Source: a virus. From it: a stretch of 64,000 nt of DNA. The stretch covers positions 1 through 64,000 of the IMG/VR virus record IMGVR_UViG_3300030085_002231, one strand, 5' to 3'. The notes beneath the pieces were generated by a model, which was given only the letters and a program-made list of their open reading frames with translations, made no database searches and was not told where the DNA came from. The position numbers and the translations under genes were made by a program. The first letter of the stretch is position 1. The number at the start of each line of letters is the position of its first letter. Below are positions 48,617-63,340 of this stretch, piece after piece.

Positions 48617-51109
48617 ATGTTTTATACTTCAGTAGTACGTTACGGTAATTCATTTCTGTATCGCGGCTATGACGCTGCCGGCAAACGCGTCTATAAAAAA
48701 GATTCCTTCTCACCAAGATTGTTCGTACCTTCCAAAGCCGAAACATCTTGGCGTGGTCTCGATGGCGCACCCATCGGGCCAGTAGATTTCAAAACAATGC
48801 GTGAATGTCGGCAATGGCTTGACCAATATCGTGAAGTTGGTGGCTTCGATATTTACGGCAATCCTAATATGATCCAACAGTATATCGCTCATAAGTTTCC
48901 AAGAGATATTGAGTTTGATCGTGACATAATCAACGTCACCACAATCGATATTGAAACAGCGTATGAGGATGGATTCCCAGAACCAGAGAAAGCCAACCAA
49001 GAAGTTTTGGCTATCACCATCAAAAATAATATCGATGGCATATATCGTGTATGGGGCATGAAAGATTATGACGTTGGTTCTGCGCTTATACAACCAGTGC
49101 GTTATTATAAATGTAAAGACGAGGTTGACTTACTTCTAAAGTTTCTTGACTTTTGGCATGACCATCGCAACACGCCTGACGTTGTGACAGGTTGGAATGT
49201 AAAGTTTTTTGATATACCTTATCTCGTTAATCGTGTAAACAACGTGCTTGGTGTAGACCAATGTAAAAAGTTCTCGCCTTGGGGTATGGTTGACTATTCA
49301 AAGATTGTCAAACGTGGTCGCGAACAAATCACATACAAACTGCAGGGCATACAAACTTTGGATTACCTTGATCTTTTCCAAAAGTTTGGATATACCTATG
49401 GCACACAAGAATCTTATAAACTGAACCATATTGCGTACGTAGTTCTTGGCGAAAAGAAACTGTCCTTTGCCGAAGAAGGTTCTCTACGTAACCTATACAA
49501 AGAAGACTTCCAAAAGTATATCGACTATAATATGAAAGATGTACAGTTAGTTGATAAGCTCGAAGAAAAGATGGGGCTTATCACTCTGGCTATGACTGTG
49601 GCGTATAAAGGTGGTGTCAATTACCAAGATACATTTGGTGTGGTTGCAATATGGGAATCAATCATATATCGTAAACTCAACTCACAAAAAGTTATGCCAA
49701 AGATCGAGCCTGATGAAATGGGCATACGTGATTTTGAAGGTGGCTACGTTAAAGAACCACAGGTTGGTATGCATGACTGGGTAGTTTCTTTTGATTTGAA
49801 TTCTCTGTATCCTAATATTATTGTGCAGTGGAACATGTCACCAGAAACTTTGAACAAAGATCCACAACTTAACATGCCAAGCGGTGTACAAAACTACTTA
49901 CACAAAGAAGAAAAACAAAACAGTAGTTATACTGTAGCAGCCAATGGTTCTACTTATCGTAAAGACTTTGATGGTGTGGTACCAAATATCATTGTAGATT
50001 ATTACGATGAACGGAAGTCAGTTAAGAACATGATGATCGCTGCAGAAAAAGAATATCAAAAATCTAAAACACCAGAACTTGAAAGAGAAATCAATCGACT
50101 CACAAACCAGCAGATGGCGATTAAAATTCTTATGAACTCTTTGTATGGTGCGATCGGTAACAAACACTTTCGATATTATGATCTACGTATCGCCGAAGGT
50201 ATTACACTTACCGGTCAGCTCGCAATCAAGTGGGCAGAAAATGCTGTTAATGACGAGTTAAATAAAATACTTAAAACAGACGAAGACTATGTTATCGCAA
50301 TGGATACAGATTCACTCTATATCAACTTTGGTCCTATGATTGAAAAGCTACAGCCAAAAGATCCAGTAAAGTTTCTTGATAAGATATGTGTAGAACACTT
50401 TGAACCTGTGCTTGCCAAAGCTTATAATAAACTATTTAATGTAATGAACTGCTACAAGCCACGTATGGAAATGGGCAGGGAAGTTATTGCGGATCGTGGT
50501 ATATGGACAGCAAAGAAAAGATATATCCTCAATGTACATAACTCAGAAGGTGTACAGTACGCACAGCCTAAACTTAAGATCATGGGTATTGAAGCTATCA
50601 AGTCTTCAACACCGGAAGTATGCCGTGATAAATTCAAGCAAATATTCAATGTGATTATTACTGGCTGTGAAAAAGACACGCAGAAGTTTATACAAGATTT
50701 TAAGAATGAGTTTAGGTCACTACCACCTGAACAGGTCGCCTTCCCGCGTTCTGTAACAAACATTACAGATTACAAAGATCGCAAGACGATATATAAGAAA
50801 GGTTCGCCTATTCACGTACGTGGTTCTTTAGTATATAACAAAGCACTCAAAGAATCTGGTATGATGCATAAGTATGAAGCAATCACAAACGGTAGCCGTA
50901 TTAAGTTTGTCTATATGAAAAAGCCTAACCTGGTACGTGAAAACGTAATTGCTTTTCCGGAAGTATTACCCGAAGAGTTCGGTGTAACACGTAACATAGA
51001 CTATGACAAGCAATTCGAAAAAACTTTCTTGGAACCACTCGAGCTTATACTCAACGCGGTTGGTTGGGATGCCGAAGAGAAAGTTACACTGGAAGATTTC
51101 TTTGCATAA
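48617..51109 (+). CDS. gp43: family B DNA polymerase gp43
   Basis: DIET, GWNVKFFD, FDLNSLYP, KILMNSLYG, DTDS, KKRY, C-terminal clamp-binding TLEDFF. Confidence 0.97.
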   Translation: MFYTSVVRYGNSFLYRGYDAAGKRVYKKDSFSPRLFVPSKAETSWRGLDGAPIGPVDFKTMRECRQWLDQYREVGGFDIYGNPNMIQQYIAHKFPRDIEFDRDIINVTTIDIETAYEDGFPEPEKANQEVLAITIKNNIDGIYRVWGMKDYDVGSALIQPVRYYKCKDEVDLLLKFLDFWHDHRNTPDVVTGWNVKFFDIPYLVNRVNNVLGVDQCKKFSPWGMVDYSKIVKRGREQITYKLQGIQTLDYLDLFQKFGYTYGTQESYKLNHIAYVVLGEKKLSFAEEGSLRNLYKEDFQKYIDYNMKDVQLVDKLEEKMGLITLAMTVAYKGGVNYQDTFGVVAIWESIIYRKLNSQKVMPKIEPDEMGIRDFEGGYVKEPQVGMHDWVVSFDLNSLYPNIIVQWNMSPETLNKDPQLNMPSGVQNYLHKEEKQNSSYTVAANGSTYRKDFDGVVPNIIVDYYDERKSVKNMMIAAEKEYQKSKTPELEREINRLTNQQMAIKILMNSLYGAIGNKHFRYYDLRIAEGITLTGQLAIKWAENAVNDELNKILKTDEDYVIAMDTDSLYINFGPMIEKLQPKDPVKFLDKICVEHFEPVLAKAYNKLFNVMNCYKPRMEMGREVIADRGIWTAKKRYILNVHNSEGVQYAQPKLKIMGIEAIKSSTPEVCRDKFKQIFNVIITGCEKDTQKFIQDFKNEFRSLPPEQVAFPRSVTNITDYKDRKTIYKKGSPIHVRGSLVYNKALKESGMMHKYEAITNGSRIKFVYMKKPNLVRENVIAFPEVLPEEFGVTRNIDYDKQFEKTFLEPLELILNAVGWDAEEKVTLEDFFA

Positions 51110-51114
51110 AGTGG

Positions 51115-51143
51115 TTTACTTTTACGATAAAATGGAGTATAAT
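51115..51143 (+). promoter_or_regulatory. early promoter GTTTACT-N17-TATAAT
   Basis: 7 nt to the ATG at 51151. Confidence 0.75.
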
Positions 51144-51150
51144 AGATATT

Positions 51151-51573
51151 ATGAGTAAAGATTGGGTACAAGATATTAGTGACATGCATACCAAGTTTGG
51201 TGTGCGTAAGTGGGTCAATGAACAAATCCAGTTTGGTGAAAAAGAAAAACTCGAAAAGTTTCTCGAGTTTCGTCTTAAATTCTTAGAAGAAGAACTCAAC
51301 GAAACACGAGCTGCAGCAATTGTGGATAAAAATCCAGAAGAAATTGTTGACGGTTTGATTGATCTGTGTGTTGTTGCCATTGGTACACTGGATGCGTTTG
51401 GAGTTGACGCTCACAAAGCATGGGATAAAGTACACAACGCAAACATGGCCAAAGAACCGGGTGTAAAAGAATCGCGCCCTAATCCACTTGGCCTGCCCGA
51501 TCTGATTAAACCAGAAGATTGGAAGGGACCCGATCATCGTGACAACCATGGATATTTCATTCACAGTCTTTAA
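51151..51573 (+). CDS. MazG/PRA-PH-like nucleotide pyrophosphohydrolase (candidate dCTPase/dUTPase)
   Basis: FLEEELNE...EEIVDGLIDLCVVAIG, VHNANMAK, KPEDW; start reassigned to MSKDW. Confidence 0.75.
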   Translation: MSKDWVQDISDMHTKFGVRKWVNEQIQFGEKEKLEKFLEFRLKFLEEELNETRAAAIVDKNPEEIVDGLIDLCVVAIGTLDAFGVDAHKAWDKVHNANMAKEPGVKESRPNPLGLPDLIKPEDWKGPDHRDNHGYFIHSL

Positions 51574-52542: not shown

Positions 52543-52977
52543 ATGAAAATTGATTCTATAAATGGATGTGCAGTTGTTCCTTTAAAGTTTAGAGATAAAG
52601 TATACGTTGACATGTATACAACAGGTGGTCATCATTATTTCTTAGACGAAAATGGAAATCTTTTTAAATTACAAGAAATGTCTGTTGGTGAAAAACGCCC
52701 GTCTGCAAGTATTGATGGTGTGAATGTAACAATTGCTCAAGCTATGTTAGAATCTTGGTACCACTCACGAGATGAGTGGATTCTTACTGACGATGCTAGA
52801 CCAGATAATGTTTCAATTGATGATTGGAGAAATACTCCAGATTCAGTAAAAAAAGCATTAGCTAAAAACGGAGTAGATGTAGACCACAAAAATGGTGATT
52901 CTAGTGATAATAGATTATCTAACCTACAATATTTGTATAGACACGCTAATGTCATGAAAGGTGGCAAAAAGAAATGA
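52543..52977 (+). CDS. free-standing HNH endonuclease
   Basis: DVDHKNGDSSDNRLSNLQYL...N; GAGGAG RBS. Confidence 0.75.
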   Translation: MKIDSINGCAVVPLKFRDKVYVDMYTTGGHHYFLDENGNLFKLQEMSVGEKRPSASIDGVNVTIAQAMLESWYHSRDEWILTDDARPDNVSIDDWRNTPDSVKKALAKNGVDVDHKNGDSSDNRLSNLQYLYRHANVMKGGKKK

Positions 52978-53327
52978 AAGAATCAATAAAAGTATTACAA
53001 GAATGTGCTGAACTACAAGCCAAGAAGTCTGAAGATTATCAGAACGAAGGTTCAAACGTACTGCAAGCCATGCACTATCGTCGTGGCGTAGACAGCTTAC
53101 ACGATATCATTCAAGGTAAGTGTTATCGTGCACAGTCACTACTTGAATCTGGTAGTGATCCAAACCATGAATCACTAGAAGATACGTATAAAGATATTAT
53201 TAACTACTGTTCTTTTGTAGTATCTTACATGCGTGGTAAGATGGAAGGTCAACGACCTGATCGTGATATGTTTAATAAGCCAAAGGTGAAAAAGAATGAA
53301 AGTGGGACTGACGGCGTCGACGTTTGA
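52974..53327 (+). CDS. nucleotide-modification-associated (NMAD1/DUF1599-like) protein
   Basis: ECAELQAKKSEDY, K..RA.SL, ESLEDTYKDIINY. Confidence 0.65.
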   Translation: MKESIKVLQECAELQAKKSEDYQNEGSNVLQAMHYRRGVDSLHDIIQGKCYRAQSLLESGSDPNHESLEDTYKDIINYCSFVVSYMRGKMEGQRPDRDMFNKPKVKKNESGTDGVDV

Positions 53328-53718
53328 TTTACTACACGCCGGTCATATCGTTATGTTGCGTGAAGCAAAATCACAATGTGACTATTTAATATGTGCTTTG
53401 CAAGTTGATCCTACACTTGACCGTGCGACTAAGAACGCACCGGTCCAAAGTATCGTTGAAAGACAAGCACAACTCGCAGCAGTAAGTTACGTTGATGAAG
53501 TAATTATTTATTGTACAGAAGCTGATTTAGTTGATATAATAAACATGTATCCAATTGATGTAAGAATACTCGGTGAAGAATATAGGCAGAAAGATTTTAC
53601 TGGTAAAGATGAATGTCGTAATCGTGGCATACAGTTGTACTTTAACAAACGTGACCACAGATTTTCATCAACAGATTTGAGAAAGAGAGTAGCAGATGCG
53701 AATGACAACCGTAAGTGA
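53296..53718 (+). CDS. TagD-like cytidylyltransferase
   Basis: STFDLLHAGH (HxGH), ER, VDEVI, GEEY, FSST. Confidence 0.85.
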   Translation: MKVGLTASTFDLLHAGHIVMLREAKSQCDYLICALQVDPTLDRATKNAPVQSIVERQAQLAAVSYVDEVIIYCTEADLVDIINMYPIDVRILGEEYRQKDFTGKDECRNRGIQLYFNKRDHRFSSTDLRKRVADANDNRK

Positions 53719-54373
53719 TATTAGAAAACATTTTATTGGAGAACTAAAAGATGAAGCCTTCACCACAGACAAAACTGGACAAAACACAATTGAGTTGCTT
53801 GGCGCTTCATTTCTTGCAGACGAGCCAGCAATCTTTGGAGATCCAAACGATGCGTACATCCGAAGCGAAATTGATTGGTACCTTAGTGGTAGTACTAATA
53901 TCAATGACATTTATCGCTGGCCTGATCACCCTAGTGATAAACAACCCCCAGCTGCTTGGCAGCTTGCTGCAAATGAACATGGCGAAATAAACTCTAACTA
54001 TGGTCGATTGATTTTTAGTGATATATATTATAGACAGTACGATAACGTACTTACAGAGTTGACAAATTGGCCTGACTCTCGTAGAGCGTCAATGATTTAT
54101 CAAAGACCGTCTATATGGATAGAGTATACAGAAAATGGTAAAGGTGATTTCATATGTACTAATGCTGTCACTTATTATATACGCAATGATGAACTACAGT
54201 CAGTGGTCCAAATGCGCTCAAACGATGTCGTGTTCGGATACAAAAATGACTATGCTTGGCAGCAGTATGTTCTAGAACAACTTGCAAACGATCTTAATAT
54301 CAAACCAGGTTTTATAACTTGGCAAGTTCAAAATCTTCACGTTTACGAAAGACACTTCAACCTTGTTAAATAA
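53696..54373 (+). CDS. gp42: dCMP hydroxymethyltransferase (T4 gp42 homologue)
   Basis: DKTG..TIE..GASF.ADEP.IFG, GEINSNYG, PDSRR, DFICTN, MRSNDVVFG..NDYAWQ, LHVY.RHF. Confidence 0.9.
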   Translation: MRMTTVSDIRKHFIGELKDEAFTTDKTGQNTIELLGASFLADEPAIFGDPNDAYIRSEIDWYLSGSTNINDIYRWPDHPSDKQPPAAWQLAANEHGEINSNYGRLIFSDIYYRQYDNVLTELTNWPDSRRASMIYQRPSIWIEYTENGKGDFICTNAVTYYIRNDELQSVVQMRSNDVVFGYKNDYAWQQYVLEQLANDLNIKPGFITWQVQNLHVYERHFNLVK

Positions 54374-54836
54374 ATGGGACATGCGATACCTTGCACTCGC
54401 AGAAGAAGTAGCACAGTGGTCGAAAGATCCATCCACTAAGATTGGTGCTATTGCTGTAGGTAAGAAAGGTCAAGTCTTATCACAGGGTTACAATGGGTTT
54501 CCACGTGGTATCGAAGACAAAGTAGAATACTATCAAGATCGTGAAACAAAATATAAGTACGTAGTACACGCAGAAATGAATGTCATATATAATGCTACAT
54601 ATCATGGTGTTTGTTTAGAAGGCACAACACTATACGTTACAGGTTTACCCGTTTGTTCTGATTGTGCAAAGGGTATCATACAAGTCGGCATTACAAGAGT
54701 AGTAATGAAAGAAAGACTAACACCACAAAAGTGGGTAGACTCATGGAAGACTACATCTAAAATGTTTGACGAAGCAAATGTTAAATGGGAGTTTATCAAT
54801 GTCAGCAACACAGGAATGGTTGAAACAAAAGTTTAG
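54363..54836 (+). CDS. cd: dCMP deaminase
   Basis: SKDPSTKIGA, GYNG, HAEMN, PVCSDC. Confidence 0.92.
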   Translation: MLNKWDMRYLALAEEVAQWSKDPSTKIGAIAVGKKGQVLSQGYNGFPRGIEDKVEYYQDRETKYKYVVHAEMNVIYNATYHGVCLEGTTLYVTGLPVCSDCAKGIIQVGITRVVMKERLTPQKWVDSWKTTSKMFDEANVKWEFINVSNTGMVETKV

Positions 54837-55008
54837 AGAAGACGCTGGTCTAGTAGCTTACAGCAATACTCGATTAACTGAAGAAATAGAAGATCTAAAA
54901 GAAAGATTAAAAAAGGTAGAAACTGACATGGCATATACACAGAAGATTAGATTTGCTCAAAGTCCTGAAGAGCAAAGGATAAATGATATAAGGAACGTAG
55001 TAGATTGA
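54799..55008 (+). CDS. small coiled-coil hypothetical protein
   Basis: ATG at 54799 after GGAG. Confidence 0.5.
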   Translation: MSATQEWLKQKFREDAGLVAYSNTRLTEEIEDLKERLKKVETDMAYTQKIRFAQSPEEQRINDIRNVVD

Positions 55009-55373
55009 TTTTAGTTGTTGGTCATAGTCCTTCTTCTAAAGAGTATTGTCCGAAGAAAGGCAATCCTTCTATCAACCGTCTTAACAGGTGGCTCGATGCA
55101 TGTGGTGTGGATATATACAGCTTTACTAACCTGTGTGCACACCACAGTGAGTCTATCAAAGCAGCAGATATTGATGAAACATTAATAAAAGAATGTGTAA
55201 AACCTTATAATAAAGTAATAGCTTTAGGTAATGAAGTAGCACATTATTTCAAGAAAAAAGGTATCGATTGCTTTCATGCACCTCACCCATCTCCACGTAA
55301 CAGGAAGTTTAACGACAAAAGTTACGAATCAACTGTAATTAATGGTTTACAAAAGTACATACATATGATATAA
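55005..55373 (+). CDS. minimal uracil-DNA glycosylase superfamily protein
   Basis: LVVGHSP, FTNL, VIALG, HPSPRN. Confidence 0.7.
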   Translation: MILVVGHSPSSKEYCPKKGNPSINRLNRWLDACGVDIYSFTNLCAHHSESIKAADIDETLIKECVKPYNKVIALGNEVAHYFKKKGIDCFHAPHPSPRNRKFNDKSYESTVINGLQKYIHMI

Positions 55374-55374
55374 T
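55346..55374 (+). promoter_or_regulatory. early promoter GTTTACA-N17-TATAAT for the agt-epimerase-ugd-MTase unit
   Basis: Same motif and spacing as the other early promoters. Confidence 0.7.
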
Positions 55375-55405
55375 ATACAATATAATAAAGACATAAGGTG
55401 AGACT

Positions 55406-56629
55406 ATGAAAATTGTACATATACTTGGCCGCGGCATTGAAGGTTGCGGCGTAACTCGATTTACACTTGAGTTAAAAGACTGGGCACTAAGCCAAGGTTG
55501 GAATTATACAGTATACGCACCAACCGATAAGAAATGGACACGTGCTTCATCACACTATCTAGATGAAAATATTAAACAATGGAAGTGGGGAAACAAGCCC
55601 GCCCGCGGAGACACACGTTGTGGCACTGAATCGATTATAGAAGATTGTAATAAGTCAGATTTAGTTCTTATTGGTTCACTGCCATCTAAAGGCCACCCAG
55701 ATGATTGTATAGAAAATTTTGGTAAGTTAATTGAAGGAATCAAAACTAAAAAAGTTATGATTCAACACGACCACAAGATGATGTCAATCAGACGCAATGC
55801 ATTGCTAGACGATGTGATTCAATCAGCCGACGTTATCTTTTCGTATTCTACTAAAAGTCCTTTTATGGATTACTGTAAAAAGATTGGTGCCAAAGGAAAC
55901 ATGTTTAACTTCTGCAATGGAGTTAACGTACAAAGAATACGTGATGAATACTGGAAACCTATCGAAGAACAAGACCCTGATCATTTAAAATGGATTGGAC
56001 GGTCTGCATATTGGAAAGGTTTCGATGTACTATTTGATTTACATAAAAGTACTAAAGGTACTAACTTACTATACACACTTGAAGGAATGGAAAAGTCAAT
56101 ACAGTTCGTAGATATACGTAAAGCTTTTGACTTCCACGAAATGGCTGAAGAGTTTGATGTAGAAACAAAGCACGGCGAAAAACCTTATGTCTTTGGTGCG
56201 TTCAAACATAGTGAAATGTTAGAACGTATGTCACGCTGTGGCTTTGGTTTTCAGCTGACAACTCTTCAGCCAGAATATATACAGAACTTTATTGAGTTCA
56301 CACACCTAGAAATCGTAGCGTGTGGTGTAATACCAATTTTTAGAAAAGCTTTTGGTGATCACTGTACACACCTGCAAACTGGCAATAAACTAACTGCCGA
56401 TAAAAACACCGGTACTATATGGGCAGGTGAAGTAGGTACAGATTGGAGTGAAACTATTGAACTCATAAATAAACTTAGATCAGATAATGTAATGCGTAAC
56501 GAATGGCGTGAAATGGCTTATGAATATTATGCATCACACAACGGGCCGGATGTATCGTTTCCTGATATATTCAATAAGATTGATAAACCGGCTGAAGGTC
56601 CATCCGACTTGTCTGAATTCTTTGGTTAG
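55406..56629 (+). CDS. agt: DNA alpha-glycosyltransferase (T4 alpha-glucosyltransferase homologue)
   Basis: RGIEGCGVTRF.LE..DW...DK.WTR.SSH matches the T4 Agt N-terminus; QHDH, WIGR...WKG, EFTHLE..ACG.IPIF; C-terminal LSEFF. Confidence 0.85.
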   Translation: MKIVHILGRGIEGCGVTRFTLELKDWALSQGWNYTVYAPTDKKWTRASSHYLDENIKQWKWGNKPARGDTRCGTESIIEDCNKSDLVLIGSLPSKGHPDDCIENFGKLIEGIKTKKVMIQHDHKMMSIRRNALLDDVIQSADVIFSYSTKSPFMDYCKKIGAKGNMFNFCNGVNVQRIRDEYWKPIEEQDPDHLKWIGRSAYWKGFDVLFDLHKSTKGTNLLYTLEGMEKSIQFVDIRKAFDFHEMAEEFDVETKHGEKPYVFGAFKHSEMLERMSRCGFGFQLTTLQPEYIQNFIEFTHLEIVACGVIPIFRKAFGDHCTHLQTGNKLTADKNTGTIWAGEVGTDWSETIELINKLRSDNVMRNEWREMAYEYYASHNGPDVSFPDIFNKIDKPAEGPSDLSEFFG

Positions 56630-56638
56630 GAGTATAAA

Positions 56639-57589
56639 ATGAAAATATGTATTACAGGTGGCGCAGGTTTTATTGGCTTTCACTTAGCACAGAAATTACG
56701 TAAAGAAGGACACGGGGTATTTGGTTTTGATAACTTCAATAGTTACTATGATGTAGACTTAAAAAGAAAACGTGCTGAAATTCTTGAAAGTCTTGGCATT
56801 CACATTGAGCCATTGGATTTACGTGTTAGAAGTAAATTAATAGAATATTTAGATCAAATCAGACCTGATGTTATAATGCACTTAGCAGCCATGGCTGGTG
56901 TTAGACACTCCATGGATGATCCAACAGCTTACGTTGATAACAATATTCTAGGTACACATAACCTTATCGAAGCCTGTGACCTTGTTGGTATTGAAAAAGT
57001 AGTGTATGCTTCTACGTCTTGTGTTATGGCTGGCAATCCACTTCCGTGGAATGAAGAAGAAAAGTTAGGTGTTGCAAAGAACCCATACGGATATTCTAAA
57101 GCTACTAATGAAGCACAGTTTATTTCTTCTAAAATCGATTCAACAATTGGCTTAAGATTCTTTACTGTCTATGGTCCTTGGGGTAGACCAGATATGGCGC
57201 TGTTCGATTTTACGAAAAGTATTATAGAAGAAAAACCTATTAAGCTTTTTAATAATGGTGATATGGTTCGCGACTTTACTTACGTTGATGATATTGTACA
57301 GGGCGTAGGTCTTGTCATAGATAGAATAAATGAAAAGTCAGACATTAACGAGATTTATAATATTGGCTATGGACAGCAAGTACAACTTATGGAATTTGTA
57401 AAACACATAGAACAAAACTTAGATAGGGAAGCTATCAAAGAATACGTACCTATGCACCCAGCCGATACACATAAAACTTGGTCTGACACAAGTAAAATAA
57501 GACAACTCGGATATTCACCTAAAACTCCAATAGGTAGAGGTGTATACGAGTTTGTTCAATGGTACAAGGATTATTATCATGTCAATTAA
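56639..57589 (+). CDS. NAD-dependent epimerase, UDP-glucuronate 4-epimerase type
   Basis: TGGAGFIG, NSYYDVDLK, HLAAMAGVR.S, YGYSK, RFFTVYGPWGRPDMA. Confidence 0.85.
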   Translation: MKICITGGAGFIGFHLAQKLRKEGHGVFGFDNFNSYYDVDLKRKRAEILESLGIHIEPLDLRVRSKLIEYLDQIRPDVIMHLAAMAGVRHSMDDPTAYVDNNILGTHNLIEACDLVGIEKVVYASTSCVMAGNPLPWNEEEKLGVAKNPYGYSKATNEAQFISSKIDSTIGLRFFTVYGPWGRPDMALFDFTKSIIEEKPIKLFNNGDMVRDFTYVDDIVQGVGLVIDRINEKSDINEIYNIGYGQQVQLMEFVKHIEQNLDREAIKEYVPMHPADTHKTWSDTSKIRQLGYSPKTPIGRGVYEFVQWYKDYYHVN

Positions 57590-58406
57590 TATTGCAATCA
57601 TAGGTCATGGATACGTAGGTAAAGCAGTAGATCATGGCTTCTCTACGAGTCAAGTTTCAAAGTATATTGTAGATCCAATATATGGGTCTCCAACTATCGA
57701 AGATCTCGTTGGTAAGATTCGTTTGCATGCAGCATTTGTTTGTGTACCTACACCATTTGGTGATGATGGAAAGATTGATGCTTCTATAGTTAAAGATTCA
57801 GTACGTAAATTATCTGGTGCAATGTGTCCTATCGTTGTAAAGTCTACTACTACACCTGACGTTATCGAAGAACTTTATTTAGAAAACGAAAACGTAATTT
57901 ACAACCCAGAGTTCTTGACAGAAAAGAATGCTTTACACGATTTTATCAATCCACCAATGCATGTACTTGGTGGTAAGAGGCAGTACACTAATAAAGTATT
58001 AGAACTATATGAAAACTACTCGCAGTGTACACCATGTCCAGCATACCACATGACTGCAAAAGAGGCATCCTTTGTAAAGTATGGAATCAATTCATTCTTA
58101 GCGAGTAAAGTTCTGTGGTTCAACCAATTTAAGGATGTGGTTGAAAAATGGGATGCTAAGTATAACGTAATTGTTAATGCAATAGGTACTGATCCACGTA
58201 TTGGACACAGTCACACACAAGTACCTGGTCCTGATGGACGTAAAGGTTTTGGTGGTGCTTGTTTTCCAAAAGATACGAATGCGTTTTGTGCCTTTTCTGA
58301 TGGAGACCTACCTGTACTTAAAAAGATTATTGAGGAAAACAATAAATACAGAAGTCAATATGAACTCGATGATCGTGAAAAAGAACAGAAAGTAAGTTAT
58401 GAATAA
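57579..58406 (+). CDS. ugd: UDP-glucose 6-dehydrogenase (short form)
   Basis: IIGHGYVG, CVPTP, KST, NPEFL.E, KY..N.FLA.KV, GFGGACFPKD. Confidence 0.85.
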   Translation: MSINIAIIGHGYVGKAVDHGFSTSQVSKYIVDPIYGSPTIEDLVGKIRLHAAFVCVPTPFGDDGKIDASIVKDSVRKLSGAMCPIVVKSTTTPDVIEELYLENENVIYNPEFLTEKNALHDFINPPMHVLGGKRQYTNKVLELYENYSQCTPCPAYHMTAKEASFVKYGINSFLASKVLWFNQFKDVVEKWDAKYNVIVNAIGTDPRIGHSHTQVPGPDGRKGFGGACFPKDTNAFCAFSDGDLPVLKKIIEENNKYRSQYELDDREKEQKVSYE

Positions 58407-59595
58407 TTATGCGAGTATTATACCACTTATTGGCGGTGAAACAATCGCCATGCAAAACGTATTTAAGAAAAAACCGGAGTATATTTTAAGCTATGAACCG
58501 TTTAAAGCAAACGATACTCACCTTGTTGAGTACTATCAACGAAAAGTTCCCTACCATCTGTTGGGAGATAACGGGGTGGACAACCTACCTAGTGTCGATG
58601 TTGTTAATACCGTATGTCCTTGTGCTGGGCTTAGCAGTCTTAGTACTACAGCATCTACTGATTCTGCTGCTAACGATTGGATGCCTACCACAGCTCGTTA
58701 TGTTTTGGGTACACTCCAACCTCGAGTATTCTGGGGCGAAAACGCACCAAGACTCGCTTCAGCAATGGGACGACCTATTGTCGAAAGTCTCCGCGAAATC
58801 GGTAAAGAGTTTGGATACACTTTCAGCATTTTTAAAACGAAGTCTATCCTTCATGGATTGAGTCAAGTCAGGGACAGAACGTTTTATTTCTTTTGGAAAG
58901 GTGATAAAGTACCAGTCTTTGAATATATAAAAAGGGAACACGAAAAAATAGAAGACACGATACGTTCCGTGAAACGTGATCCACAGGATCCAATGAATGT
59001 ACTTACTAATAAACGTGTTCCTACAGAAGACCCGTTCTATCGATACATTTTAGAAGAACTAGAAAATAATATTAGTCATACAGATTTTCAAAATAAGATA
59101 CAAAAATCTTATGATGTCTTGTGGTACATAGAACAACACGTTACCTATGATAAAGTTGCAAAGTGGATGGACAAGAATGGCTTTATAAAAAAAGCTGAAC
59201 GCTGTCGTACAATGTTTGACAAATTAAAAGCTGGCGGTAACGTAATGAGAAGAGGTGTGTACATACCGAAAGATTATATAGGTGCCTTTGTTGGAGCACT
59301 ACCTACAATGTGCACACACCCAGATGAAAATAGATTTTTAACTATTAGAGAATGTTTAAGTATTATGAAATTACCTTCTGATTTTGTATTACAAGGTGGC
59401 CTTAAAAATTTAAATCACATATGTCAAAACGTACCTGTCACTACTGCAATGGATATGGCAGAACACGTATTAAAATATCTTGATGGCAGACTTGATAATA
59501 GGATGATCGATACAGATTACTTAGTACAAGATAATAAGAATATGACATTGAATTACAAAAAAGACAGTGTACAACTTGACGCTTTTATGGTATAA
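58399..59595 (+). CDS. C5 cytosine DNA methyltransferase homologue with atypical SAM-binding motifs
   Basis: PCAGLS (IV), GENAP (VI), QVRDRTF (VIII), RFLTIRE (IX), CQNVP (X); motif I reads IIPLIGG. Confidence 0.75.
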   Translation: MNNYASIIPLIGGETIAMQNVFKKKPEYILSYEPFKANDTHLVEYYQRKVPYHLLGDNGVDNLPSVDVVNTVCPCAGLSSLSTTASTDSAANDWMPTTARYVLGTLQPRVFWGENAPRLASAMGRPIVESLREIGKEFGYTFSIFKTKSILHGLSQVRDRTFYFFWKGDKVPVFEYIKREHEKIEDTIRSVKRDPQDPMNVLTNKRVPTEDPFYRYILEELENNISHTDFQNKIQKSYDVLWYIEQHVTYDKVAKWMDKNGFIKKAERCRTMFDKLKAGGNVMRRGVYIPKDYIGAFVGALPTMCTHPDENRFLTIRECLSIMKLPSDFVLQGGLKNLNHICQNVPVTTAMDMAEHVLKYLDGRLDNRMIDTDYLVQDNKNMTLNYKKDSVQLDAFMV

Positions 59596-59596
59596 T
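59568..59596 (+). promoter_or_regulatory. early promoter TGTACA-N17-TATAAT upstream of uvsX
   Basis: Same motif and spacing. Confidence 0.65.
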
Positions 59597-59597
59597 A

Positions 59598-59762
59598 ATG
59601 GATGAATTGGCGGACAAACTGAAAGTTGTTTTGCAAGAACTTAGTGATGTTATGAAACAACGTAAAGACAAGATTGAAGAAATACGTAATCAAATAACAA
59701 TACTTGAAAATAAAAATGAAGATCTTGATCGCAAGGTCAGTGAAATAATGAGGGACTTTTAA
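59598..59762 (+). CDS. small coiled-coil protein (54 aa), not in the ORF track
   Basis: MDELADKLKVVLQELSDVMKQRKDKIEEIRNQ...IMRDF; TAATG overlap with uvsX. Confidence 0.5.
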   Translation: MDELADKLKVVLQELSDVMKQRKDKIEEIRNQITILENKNEDLDRKVSEIMRDF

Positions 59763-62469: not shown

Positions 62470-62675
62470 TTTATAGAGGACCAGGAATCAGTACGTATTG
62501 GGGAAGCGATGAGTATGAAGATCGCAGAGCTGAAGTTATGAAAAATGAATTAGGCTTTTATATCGATATGTACAGAAAAGATAAGCTCGTTGAATCTAGG
62601 CCTCTATACGAACACAGCCAAATGTATGCAGAAAGTGCTGCAGAAAATTATGTTATGGGAATTCTTAATCCATGA
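62466..62675 (+). CDS. hypothetical protein
   Basis: 69 aa; YAESAAENYVMG. Confidence 0.6.
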   Translation: MIYRGPGISTYWGSDEYEDRRAEVMKNELGFYIDMYRKDKLVESRPLYEHSQMYAESAAENYVMGILNP

Positions 62676-63340
62676 AAGTACGACTTATTAGTTACAGTAA
62701 ACCACCGGAGGAACTCTATGTTGGTGACAACGTCCAAGAACTCATTGCGTATACAGCCCGTGTCTCGAACCCATCGAACCAAGACAACACCGAAACGTCA
62801 GAAAGATTACTACGATACCTCATTAGAGAAAAACACTGGTCGCCATTTGAAATGGTTAGCGCTTGCTTGGAAGTAGAAACTACCCGTGATATCGCAAGGC
62901 AGCTTTTGAGACATAGATCATTCTCTTTTCAAGAGTTTAGTCAGAGATATGCTGACCCTACACAAGATCTTAAGTTTCAATTGAAAGATGCACGTCTACA
63001 AGACACAAAGAATAGACAGAATAGTATAAATGTAAAAGATCCAGACTTACAACTAGAATGGTTAAAACAACAATCGGAGGCAGTCAATGCAGCAAAAAAA
63101 TCTTACAGCTGGGCAATCGAAAATGGTATTGCTAAAGAACAAGCTCGTGCAGTTTTACCGGAAGGTATCATGGAATCTCGATTGTATGTCAACGGCACCA
63201 TTAGGTCCTGGATACATTACGTCGGATTACGTTCAGGTCATGGGACGCAAAAAGAACACATACAACTCGCAGTAGAATGTGCGAAAGCTTTAGAACCTAT
63301 CTTTCCTATGATTATGGAGTTTTGTAATGAAGAAGATTAA
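62672..63340 (+). CDS. thyX: flavin-dependent thymidylate synthase ThyX
   Basis: HWSPFE, RQLLRHRSFSFQEFSQRY, EQARAVLP, TQKEH. Confidence 0.95.
   Translation: MKVRLISYSKPPEELYVGDNVQELIAYTARVSNPSNQDNTETSERLLRYLIREKHWSPFEMVSACLEVETTRDIARQLLRHRSFSFQEFSQRYADPTQDLKFQLKDARLQDTKNRQNSINVKDPDLQLEWLKQQSEAVNAAKKSYSWAIENGIAKEQARAVLPEGIMESRLYVNGTIRSWIHYVGLRSGHGTQKEHIQLAVECAKALEPIFPMIMEFCNEED

Follow-up and report, generated by a model that had tools for sequence, protein, structure and literature searches.

A predicted hexuronic-acid donor cassette beside a DNA glycosyltransferase gene in an uncultured marine T4-like phage

Introduction

Which sugar does a T4-like phage place on its cytosines when its DNA glycosyltransferase gene shares a transcription unit with genes for a sugar epimerase and a sugar dehydrogenase? 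The question is raised by IMG/VR record IMGVR_UViG_3300030085_002231, a viral contig of 91,449 bp (about 52% complete), of which we analyzed the first 64 kb, hereafter the window. The window belongs to an uncultured marine T4-like phage, and marine and seawater metagenomes of several studies dated 2014-2025 contain near-identical DNA. Its locus of interest encodes a dCMP hydroxymethylase of the T4 gp42 type, a homologue of the T4 alpha-glucosyltransferase (Agt), an epimerase of the UDP-glucuronic acid (UDP-GlcA) 4-epimerase family (gene epi) and a short dehydrogenase resembling UDP-glucose dehydrogenase (mini-Ugd, gene ugd). T4 Agt uses UDP-glucose (UDP-Glc). An earlier note on this DNA had proposed that the phage carries galacturonosyl- or glucuronosyl-5-hydroxymethylcytosine (hmC), and that such a base was not known to be described. 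The best single reading, predicted from the genes only, is hmC bearing a hexuronic acid (galacturonic acid most likely), to which we give an even chance. The claim of an undescribed base does not stand: E. coli has been made to produce hexuronic-acid-5hmC with a phage glycosyltransferase and an epimerase (bioRxiv 10.1101/2023.12.21.572611), so the base class is already known from reconstitution.

The locus would act as a two-stage cytosine hypermodification module. In the first stage, which close homology to T4 would place before replication, a MazG-like pyrophosphatase would remove dCTP, gp42 would turn dCMP into 5-hydroxymethyl-dCMP, and dTMP would be supplied by dCMP deaminase and ThyX, so that DNA would be made with hmC. 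In the second stage, on DNA, the Agt-family retaining GT-B enzyme would put a sugar on the hydroxymethyl group. The donor would come from the two genes co-transcribed with agt: through Cys thioester chemistry, mini-Ugd would oxidize a nucleotide-glucose at C6, giving the acid, and the epimerase would convert UDP-GlcA to UDP-galacturonic acid (UDP-GalA). The predicted product is alpha-galacturonosyl-hmC (or glucuronosyl-hmC).

A predicted route to hmC

The replication module runs in the order gp43 polymerase, MazG-like pyrophosphatase, primase, HNH, DUF1599, small nucleotidyltransferase, gp42, dCMP deaminase, two small open reading frames, Agt, epimerase of the short-chain dehydrogenase/reductase (SDR) superfamily, Ugd-like gene, C5-methyltransferase-fold gene, UvsX, gp41 helicase and ThyX (Table 1). 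The gp42 homologue retains the catalytic Cys (T4 Cys148; DFICTN in the window, DFMCTN in T4) and the cytosine-specifying Asp at the T4 D179 site (KNDYAWQ). Both residues had been noted earlier, as had a separate ThyX, and the matches in Table 1 agree with these assignments. At the position equivalent to E. coli ThyA D169 (RSNDVVFG), the homologue carries Asp, not Asn, like T4 gp42. Because RB69-type makers of 5-hydroxy-dCMP have Asn at this position (2026 paper, PMC13326640), the expected product is hmC, and by the same rule we rejected a 5-hydroxy-dCMP synthase. Arabinose in RB69-like phages, which the earlier note had offered as a parallel, concerns a different base, arabosyl-5-hydroxycytosine rather than hmC (PMC13326640).

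The hmC route is thus well supported by sequence, with dCMP hydroxymethylation as the predicted activity of gp42. A MazG/PRA-PH-like protein is a candidate for the gp56 dCTPase role, and the DUF1599 protein accompanies gp42 in relatives. No match to Tet_JBP was found anywhere in the contig, which has gp42 instead.

Table 1. Features of the locus, with window coordinates and the matches on which each assignment is based
Feature	Coordinates	Strand	Length	Matches and remarks
MazG/PRA-PH-like nucleotide pyrophosphohydrolase	51064..51573	+		phrog_671 4e-23; Pfam PRA-PH 6.6e-10; start codon uncertain
DUF1599 / nucleotide-modification-associated domain 1 protein	52974..53327	+		Pfam PF07659 3.2e-07
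Cytidylyltransferase-like nucleotidyltransferase	53296..53718	+	140 aa	HxGH motif; Pfam CTP_transf_like 1.2e-12; phrog_7878 2e-33
gp42-type dCMP hydroxymethylase	53696..54373	+		PDB 1B49/1B5E E=4e-67, residues 4-224
dCMP deaminase	54363..54836	+		Pfam dCMP_cyt_deam_1 6.6e-20; phrog_174 1.7e-44
UDG-superfamily-like protein	55005..55373	+	122 aa	Pfam UDG 1.6e-4, below cut-off
Sigma-70-like promoter, extended -10, ahead of agt	55346..55374	+		TTTACA-17-TATAAT with TG; 11/12 positions match
Agt-family (T4 alpha-glucosyltransferase-like) retaining GT-B DNA glycosyltransferase	55406..56629	+		Pfam AGT; 1Y6F
UDP-glucuronate 4-epimerase-family SDR	56639..57589	+		PDB 5U4Q 8e-79; BcUGAepi 6ZL6 3.5e-48; MoeE5 9e-35
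Two-domain Ugd-like sugar 6-dehydrogenase (mini-Ugd)	57579..58406	+	275 aa	PF03721 and PF00984, no PF03720
C5-cytosine methyltransferase-fold protein	58399..59595	+		degenerate motif I; Pfam DNA_methylase 8e-17
ThyX flavin-dependent thymidylate synthase	62672..63340	+		Pfam Thy1 7.2e-42

The agt-epi-ugd transcription unit

The Agt homologue matches its family profile (PF11440, 1.4e-54, 185.9 bits with a cut-off of 25) and, at 6e-65, the T4 structure PDB 1Y6F end to end over residues 1-392; its AF2 model has a pLDDT of 86. The protein is only about 34% identical to T4-type Agts, and the conserved loops GRG.EGCGVT, QHDH, WIGR..WKG and E.THLE are all kept.

The transferase gene stands directly beside the sugar epimerase gene (agt stop 56629, epi start 56639). 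The gaps are 9 nt between agt and epi, -11 nt between epi and ugd, and -8 nt between ugd and the C5-methyltransferase-fold gene that ends the unit. The promoter-like site ahead of agt ranks best of 46 between 50.8 and 61.2 kb. No strong plus-strand terminator lies between it and 60850, the only match being a weak one of 5 pairs at 56230, inside agt. The placement of the Agt, epimerase and Ugd genes in one unit behind this promoter, as first read from the sequence, is confirmed by their coordinates, the tight gaps and the rank of the site. Two studies with marine RNA libraries yielded contigs that cover gp42, agt, epi and the last gene in part; the agt-epi junction is bridged by contigs of both studies and the junction of ugd with the next gene by one. 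Since DNA carry-over may account for this cover, we take it as a weak hint of expression only. All three genes are under strong purifying selection, with dN/dS of 0.014-0.02 for ugd (against close relatives), 0.11 for epi and 0.05 for agt.

Epimerase and dehydrogenase

The epimerase carries the signature FFTVYGPWGRPDMA together with the NAD motif GGAGFIG (GxxGxxG) and the catalytic YGYSK (YxxxK). In B. cereus numbering it keeps T126, S127, Y149, K153, T178 and R185, and has Cys in place of S128. Matches to GalE-type chains (about 1e-24 to 1e-32) are weaker than those to UDP-glucuronic acid 4-epimerases (UGAepi), and dehydratases likewise fall below. The top match, 5U4Q, is a Klebsiella protein that its depositors named dTDP-glucose dehydratase and that we take to be a Klebsiella UGAepi. 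R185 holds the UDP-GalA carboxylate, and loss of this residue gives a decarboxylase (PMC12338863); its retention makes a decarboxylase or an arabinose route unlikely. A UDP-xylose synthase or an ArnA-type decarboxylase serving an arabinose route was rejected on the same ground and because the best relatives are 4-epimerases. The earlier assignment to the UDP-GlcA 4-epimerase family is upheld by both the signature and the carboxylate-holding Arg.

The earlier name for the third gene product, UDP-glucose dehydrogenase, fits in part. Its catalytic residues and two domains are those of the family, but the UDP-binding domain is absent, and we file the protein as Ugd-like rather than as a canonical Ugd. 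From its most likely start, ATG 57579 (MSINIAIIGHGYVG), mini-Ugd matches the NAD-binding and central domains only (profile positions 78-296 of 413). PF03720, the UDP-binding domain expected at the C-terminus, is absent from mini-Ugd, from the whole 91-kb contig and from all 120 best family members. These 120, the best of 7,318 database relatives (E<=1e-10), are all 229-293 aa long with the same two domains, and all seven relatives that were aligned share its end point. The family shows no variation in GHGYVG, NPEFLTE, the Lys/Asn pair K..N or GGACFPKD. We rejected the idea of a pseudogene left by truncation, or of a split gene, in view of the family-wide length, the invariant catalytic residues, a dN/dS of about 0.02 and the lack of a C-terminal domain elsewhere in the contig. 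Bacterial UDP-glucose 6-dehydrogenases (PDB 4A7P, 3VTF, 1DLJ) share the NAD-binding and central helical domains and the catalytic Cys, Lys, Asn, Asp and Glu motifs, whereas mini-Ugd has none of the roughly 120-residue C-terminal UDP-sugar-binding domain and its N-terminal domain is some 30 residues shorter. Given the conserved domains, catalytic residues and strong constraint, a two-step reaction that takes a primary alcohol to an acid is a well-supported prediction.

Gene order in relatives

If the cassette feeds Agt, the genes should stay together in relatives. Gene order was compared in an Agt-seeded sample of 35 viral contigs and in a mini-Ugd-seeded sample of at least 591 contigs, of which the best 80 were kept. 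Within the Agt-seeded sample, the order agt, epi, ugd, C5-methyltransferase-like gene is kept in all contigs whose Agt is 76-96% identical to that of the window and in a distant lineage at 33-35%. In contigs with Agt at 66-69% or 41% identity, agt is followed directly by the C5-methyltransferase-like gene and the epi-ugd cassette is absent. On the Agt tree, the cassette follows agt in 9/9 members of the window clade (A) and in 11/11 members of the deep clade B, whose Agts have NVDH and ENCHAE in place of the window-type loops; the sister clade A' and the rest of the tree, T4-type clades included, are without it.

Among epi-ugd pairs with a visible upstream gene in the mini-Ugd-seeded sample, a glycosyltransferase lies directly upstream in 16 of 23. 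Eight of these are Agts, five are TAGTs (PF20691, up to 5e-48) and three are a GT4-like protein of 406 aa; the epimerases of relatives with the order TAGT-epi-ugd are 57-63% identical to that of the window. In two gp42-bearing loci (L042 and L043), the Agt slot between the UDG-like gene and the epimerase holds a 363-aa protein (L043:3975-5066) of phrog_14998, with 483 database relatives and a Pfam domain in none. Its AlphaFold model (pLDDT 85.8) best matches the T4 beta-glucosyltransferase (1QKJ, 1.5e-7, TM 0.51-0.58), suggesting that this family probably comprises unrecognized DNA glycosyltransferases. Upstream of epi-ugd, relatives therefore carry two Agt clades, TAGT/JGT-like and GT4-like proteins and a BGT-like fold. 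That a single donor-type cassette follows four or five unrelated DNA-type transferases is our best reason to think that the product of the epimerase goes to the transferase beside it. Synteny, which the earlier note had proposed as a check, came out stronger than asked, in that two deep Agt clades both keep agt-epi-ugd and DNA glycosyltransferases of other families replace Agt before epi-ugd.

Alternative donors and substrates

A hexuronic acid on hmC must be weighed against a second outcome, in which Agt uses host UDP-Glc as in T4, the DNA carries plain alpha-glucosyl-hmC, and the epimerase and mini-Ugd serve something else. Lying in a hyperplastic region upstream of uvsX, the cassette could supply a second transferase elsewhere, act on virion or host-envelope glycans, or control the host UDP-sugar pool. 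We regard this outcome as somewhat unlikely. The donor of Agt (uronic as against glucose) is something that we infer from sequence, and several observations weigh against a uronic one. The IQHDHK and IEFTHLE loops are identical in the window Agt clade, in the cassette-less sister clade (66-69% identical) and in T4 Agt. In only one alignment column, K116, do all cassette-bearing Agts share a single residue that no other Agt has; 0-4 columns of this kind turn up between other non-sister clade pairs, so one is no more than chance would give. A donor-pocket signature separating cassette-bearing from cassette-less Agts was accordingly rejected as evidence either way. At position 83, an acidic residue or Ala occurs only in Agts that have no cassette. 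In the Agt model, K116 opens strand 116-120, at the strand's far end, and K83 comes after helix 74-82, with both sites on the sheet's N-terminal edge, opposite and away from the catalytic loops.

The distribution of mini-Ugd points the same way. The protein forms a very large marine phage family, found in at least 591 IMG/VR contigs, and its gene nearly always sits directly upstream of uvsX, in diverse settings and often alone. Many of these phages have no adjacent transferase, epimerase or gp42: a recognized adjacent transferase was seen in 0/11 loci with the order ugd-epi and in 3/29 loci with ugd only. At L132:1498-3711, on the contig of L026, a 244-aa mini-Ugd lies 53 kb from a cassette-less Agt, with two radical SAM genes directly after it. 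Phage C48C1, whose genome is complete, has epi-ugd with no Agt, gp42 or TAGT. UDP-glucose as the substrate of mini-Ugd is itself an assumption, since the UDP-binding domain is absent. Finally, as the window's contig is about 52% complete, further transferases may exist; our search of it for glycosyltransferases covered the Agt and TAGT families.

Phage C48C1 is probably not a clean counter-example. This member of the Kyanoviridae has, in a row at OQ984149.1 49583-53030 (L130:5584-9031), a TET/JBP dioxygenase of 472 aa, a 344-aa protein of unknown function and a UDP-galactopyranose mutase, all three annotated as hypothetical. The row is a probable second DNA sugar-modification cluster, and with its dioxygenase and mutase C48C1 is probably a DNA-sugar phage too. 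Protein searches found close epi and ugd homologues among deposited phages only in C48C1 and found none with the whole module, and the 5.9-kb locus, searched as DNA against GenBank phages, gave no match.

What tells against plain glucosylation is chiefly the company that the cassette keeps. Chance co-location poorly explains a glycosyltransferase from several unrelated DNA-modifying families directly upstream of epi in 16/23 cases, the window genes overlap behind one common promoter, and there is experimental precedent for a glycosyltransferase that depends on a partner epimerase and yields a hexuronic-acid product (bioRxiv 10.1101/2023.12.21.572611). On balance, the proposal of galacturonosyl- or glucuronosyl-hmC keeps the support of the hmC route, the epimerase family and synteny, and is weakened by Agt loops shared with cassette-less sisters, by a Ugd without its UDP domain and by the frequency of mini-Ugd without an adjacent transferase.

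The missing UDP-binding domain also bears on a different route to an acidic or otherwise altered sugar. The 140-aa nucleotidyltransferase encoded just before gp42 belongs to phrog_7878, the heptose 1-phosphate adenylyltransferase type, and from its sequence probably activates a sugar 1-phosphate. Its gene adjoins ugd or epi in many relatives and follows a phosphomannomutase gene in some, a linkage that suggests a sugar-activation step and makes a non-UDP donor possible. At L076:4896-6807 (also in L069, L075, L080-L083 and L112), the order is phosphomannomutase (PF03332, 3e-23), 140-aa nucleotidyltransferase, mini-Ugd, which looks like a self-contained route from hexose phosphate to nucleotide-hexuronate. 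Mini-Ugd might thus oxidize a non-UDP nucleotide sugar (an ADP- or CDP-hexose or heptose) made by the nucleotidyltransferase, or the acid might be processed further before or after transfer. A phage cytidylyltransferase with a GT-B enzyme has given heptosyl-5hmC (bioRxiv 10.1101/2023.12.21.572611). The epimerase, however, is a full-length relative of UDP-GlcA 4-epimerases, and the window has no kinase or mutase near the module; we consider such a route decidedly unlikely here.

Alternatively, Agt may attach glucose first, and mini-Ugd may then oxidize the DNA-bound sugar. A dehydrogenase that lacks the UDP-binding domain while keeping all catalytic residues, encoded by a gene under very strong constraint, is consistent with this order of events. 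On the other hand, mini-Ugd is frequent without an adjacent transferase, a UDP-GlcA epimerase would be left without a substrate, and no enzyme is known to oxidize a DNA-bound sugar in this way, all of which makes the idea highly improbable. A bolder combination would have an acidic sugar placed on every hmC, throughout this abundant group of marine phages, by an unprecedented route, with mini-Ugd as a new UDP-handle-free class acting on a non-UDP nucleotide sugar or a DNA-bound sugar, after which the conserved C5-methyltransferase-fold enzyme, with its degenerate cofactor motif, would tailor the modified cytosine; we think this improbable. The sequence itself shows what gp42 and Agt are, to which family the epimerase belongs, which catalytic residues mini-Ugd keeps, how the operon is laid out and that its synteny is conserved; for the donor, the mini-Ugd substrate and the final base, we infer UDP-GalA or UDP-GlcA, a nucleotide-glucose and hexuronosyl-hmC, respectively.

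Relation to known systems

Hexuronosyl-hmC made as predicted here would be a natural variant of a known base class, distinguished, to judge from the genes, by a gp42 route, an Agt-type GT-B enzyme and the phage's own dehydrogenase. Literature searches found no native phage with uronosyl-, glucuronosyl- or galacturonosyl-hmC. An experimental precedent is the reconstitution in E. coli, where GT57 (a GT-A enzyme, JGT/TAGT-like) with its partner epimerase gave hexuronic-acid-5hmC of 433 atomic mass units (amu), GT91 alone gave the same 433-amu mass, and most glycosyltransferases of that class depended on the partner epimerase (bioRxiv 10.1101/2023.12.21.572611). The 'subclass II' clusters of that preprint, which we compared by description, likewise place a DNA glycosyltransferase beside a sugar epimerase. 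They differ in making 5hmC after replication, at GpC sites, through a C5-methyltransferase together with a TET-like dioxygenase, and in using a JGT-like GT-A enzyme and host UDP-GlcA, whereas in the window hmC would arise before replication via gp42 and be modified by an Agt-type GT-B enzyme with a phage-encoded dehydrogenase.

The T-even glucosyl-hmC system (T4 gp42, gp56, cd and alpha-glucosyltransferase) resembles the window in its gp42-type hydroxymethylase, whose catalytic and specificity residues are the same, its dCMP deaminase, a dCTPase-type pyrophosphatase, for which the window has a candidate, and a full-length Agt with QHDH and E-x7-E-type loops. It differs in having no sugar-nucleotide enzymes and drawing on host UDP-Glc, whereas the window's agt is co-transcribed with epimerase-family and Ugd-like genes; the window also has ThyX for ThyA and a C5-methyltransferase-fold gene in the unit. 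The arabinosyl-5-hydroxycytosine system of RB69 and DLP3 (PMC13326640) is likewise from T4-like phages and clusters donor-synthesis genes with a thymidylate-synthase homologue and DNA glycosyltransferases. There, in contrast, an enzyme with Asn at the D169 site makes 5-hydroxy-dCMP, where the window keeps Asp, and the sugar route leads from ribulose-5-phosphate to UDP-arabinofuranose. Bacillus phage SP-15 (PMC5977210) encodes a UDP-glucose dehydrogenase homologue and bears a glucuronate-derived group on its DNA, a uronate-containing hypermodified thymine. Its base is dihydroxypentyl-uracil rather than hmC, and its Ugd is about 28% identical to mini-Ugd.

If a hexuronic acid is indeed the sugar, a widespread group of marine T4-like phages would carry a negatively charged sugar on cytosine, and restriction enzymes, type IV nucleases, CRISPR effectors and sequencing chemistries would see these genomes differently. 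Escape from GmrSD or PvuRts1I, which the earlier note had raised, is speculative. An acidic-sugar cytosine so far obtained only by heterologous expression would then exist in nature, via the pre-replicative gp42 route. The unrelated DNA glycosyltransferases swapped before one conserved donor cassette offer a ready enzyme set for the study of donor specificity, and the two-domain dehydrogenase is a predicted enzyme form with thousands of members.

Neighboring genes and mosaicism

The last gene of the unit encodes a C5-methyltransferase-fold protein with an altered motif I (PLIGG) and invariant motifs IV, VI, VIII and X (PCAGLS, GENAP, Q.R.R and QNVP); its best match to a solved structure reaches only E of about 2e-3. 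The gene is the most constant neighbor of the DNA glycosyltransferase in gp42-bearing loci (L008, L012, L014, L021, L022, L027, L031, L043, L045, L063, L091 and L107) and is rare where no gp42 is visible. Its role is puzzling on DNA whose C5 is already substituted. Homologues of the UDG-like protein lie directly before the transferase gene in gp42-bearing loci with or without the cassette (L002-L004, L021, L043, L045, L059, L063 and L067). Beside gp43, the primase at 51539-52477 matches phrog_9765 and no Pfam family. In L076, L080 and L083, a 286-aa protein of unknown function is encoded after mini-Ugd and before uvsX.

The locus at 55406-58406 is a mosaic: L002-L004 match the window at 96% identity in Agt and 98% in mini-Ugd but at only 83% in the epimerase, and in L005-L011 the figures are 84-85% for Agt and 51-58% for epi, ugd and the C5-methyltransferase-like gene. 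These differences suggest recent swapping of the transferase gene between backgrounds. Among the RNA-library contigs, single ones join window position 53339 to 59762, and 58383 to 59761. With sides of 24-35 nt, these joins are a weak hint of relatives without the whole block from gp42 to the C5-methyltransferase-like gene, or without the latter gene only.

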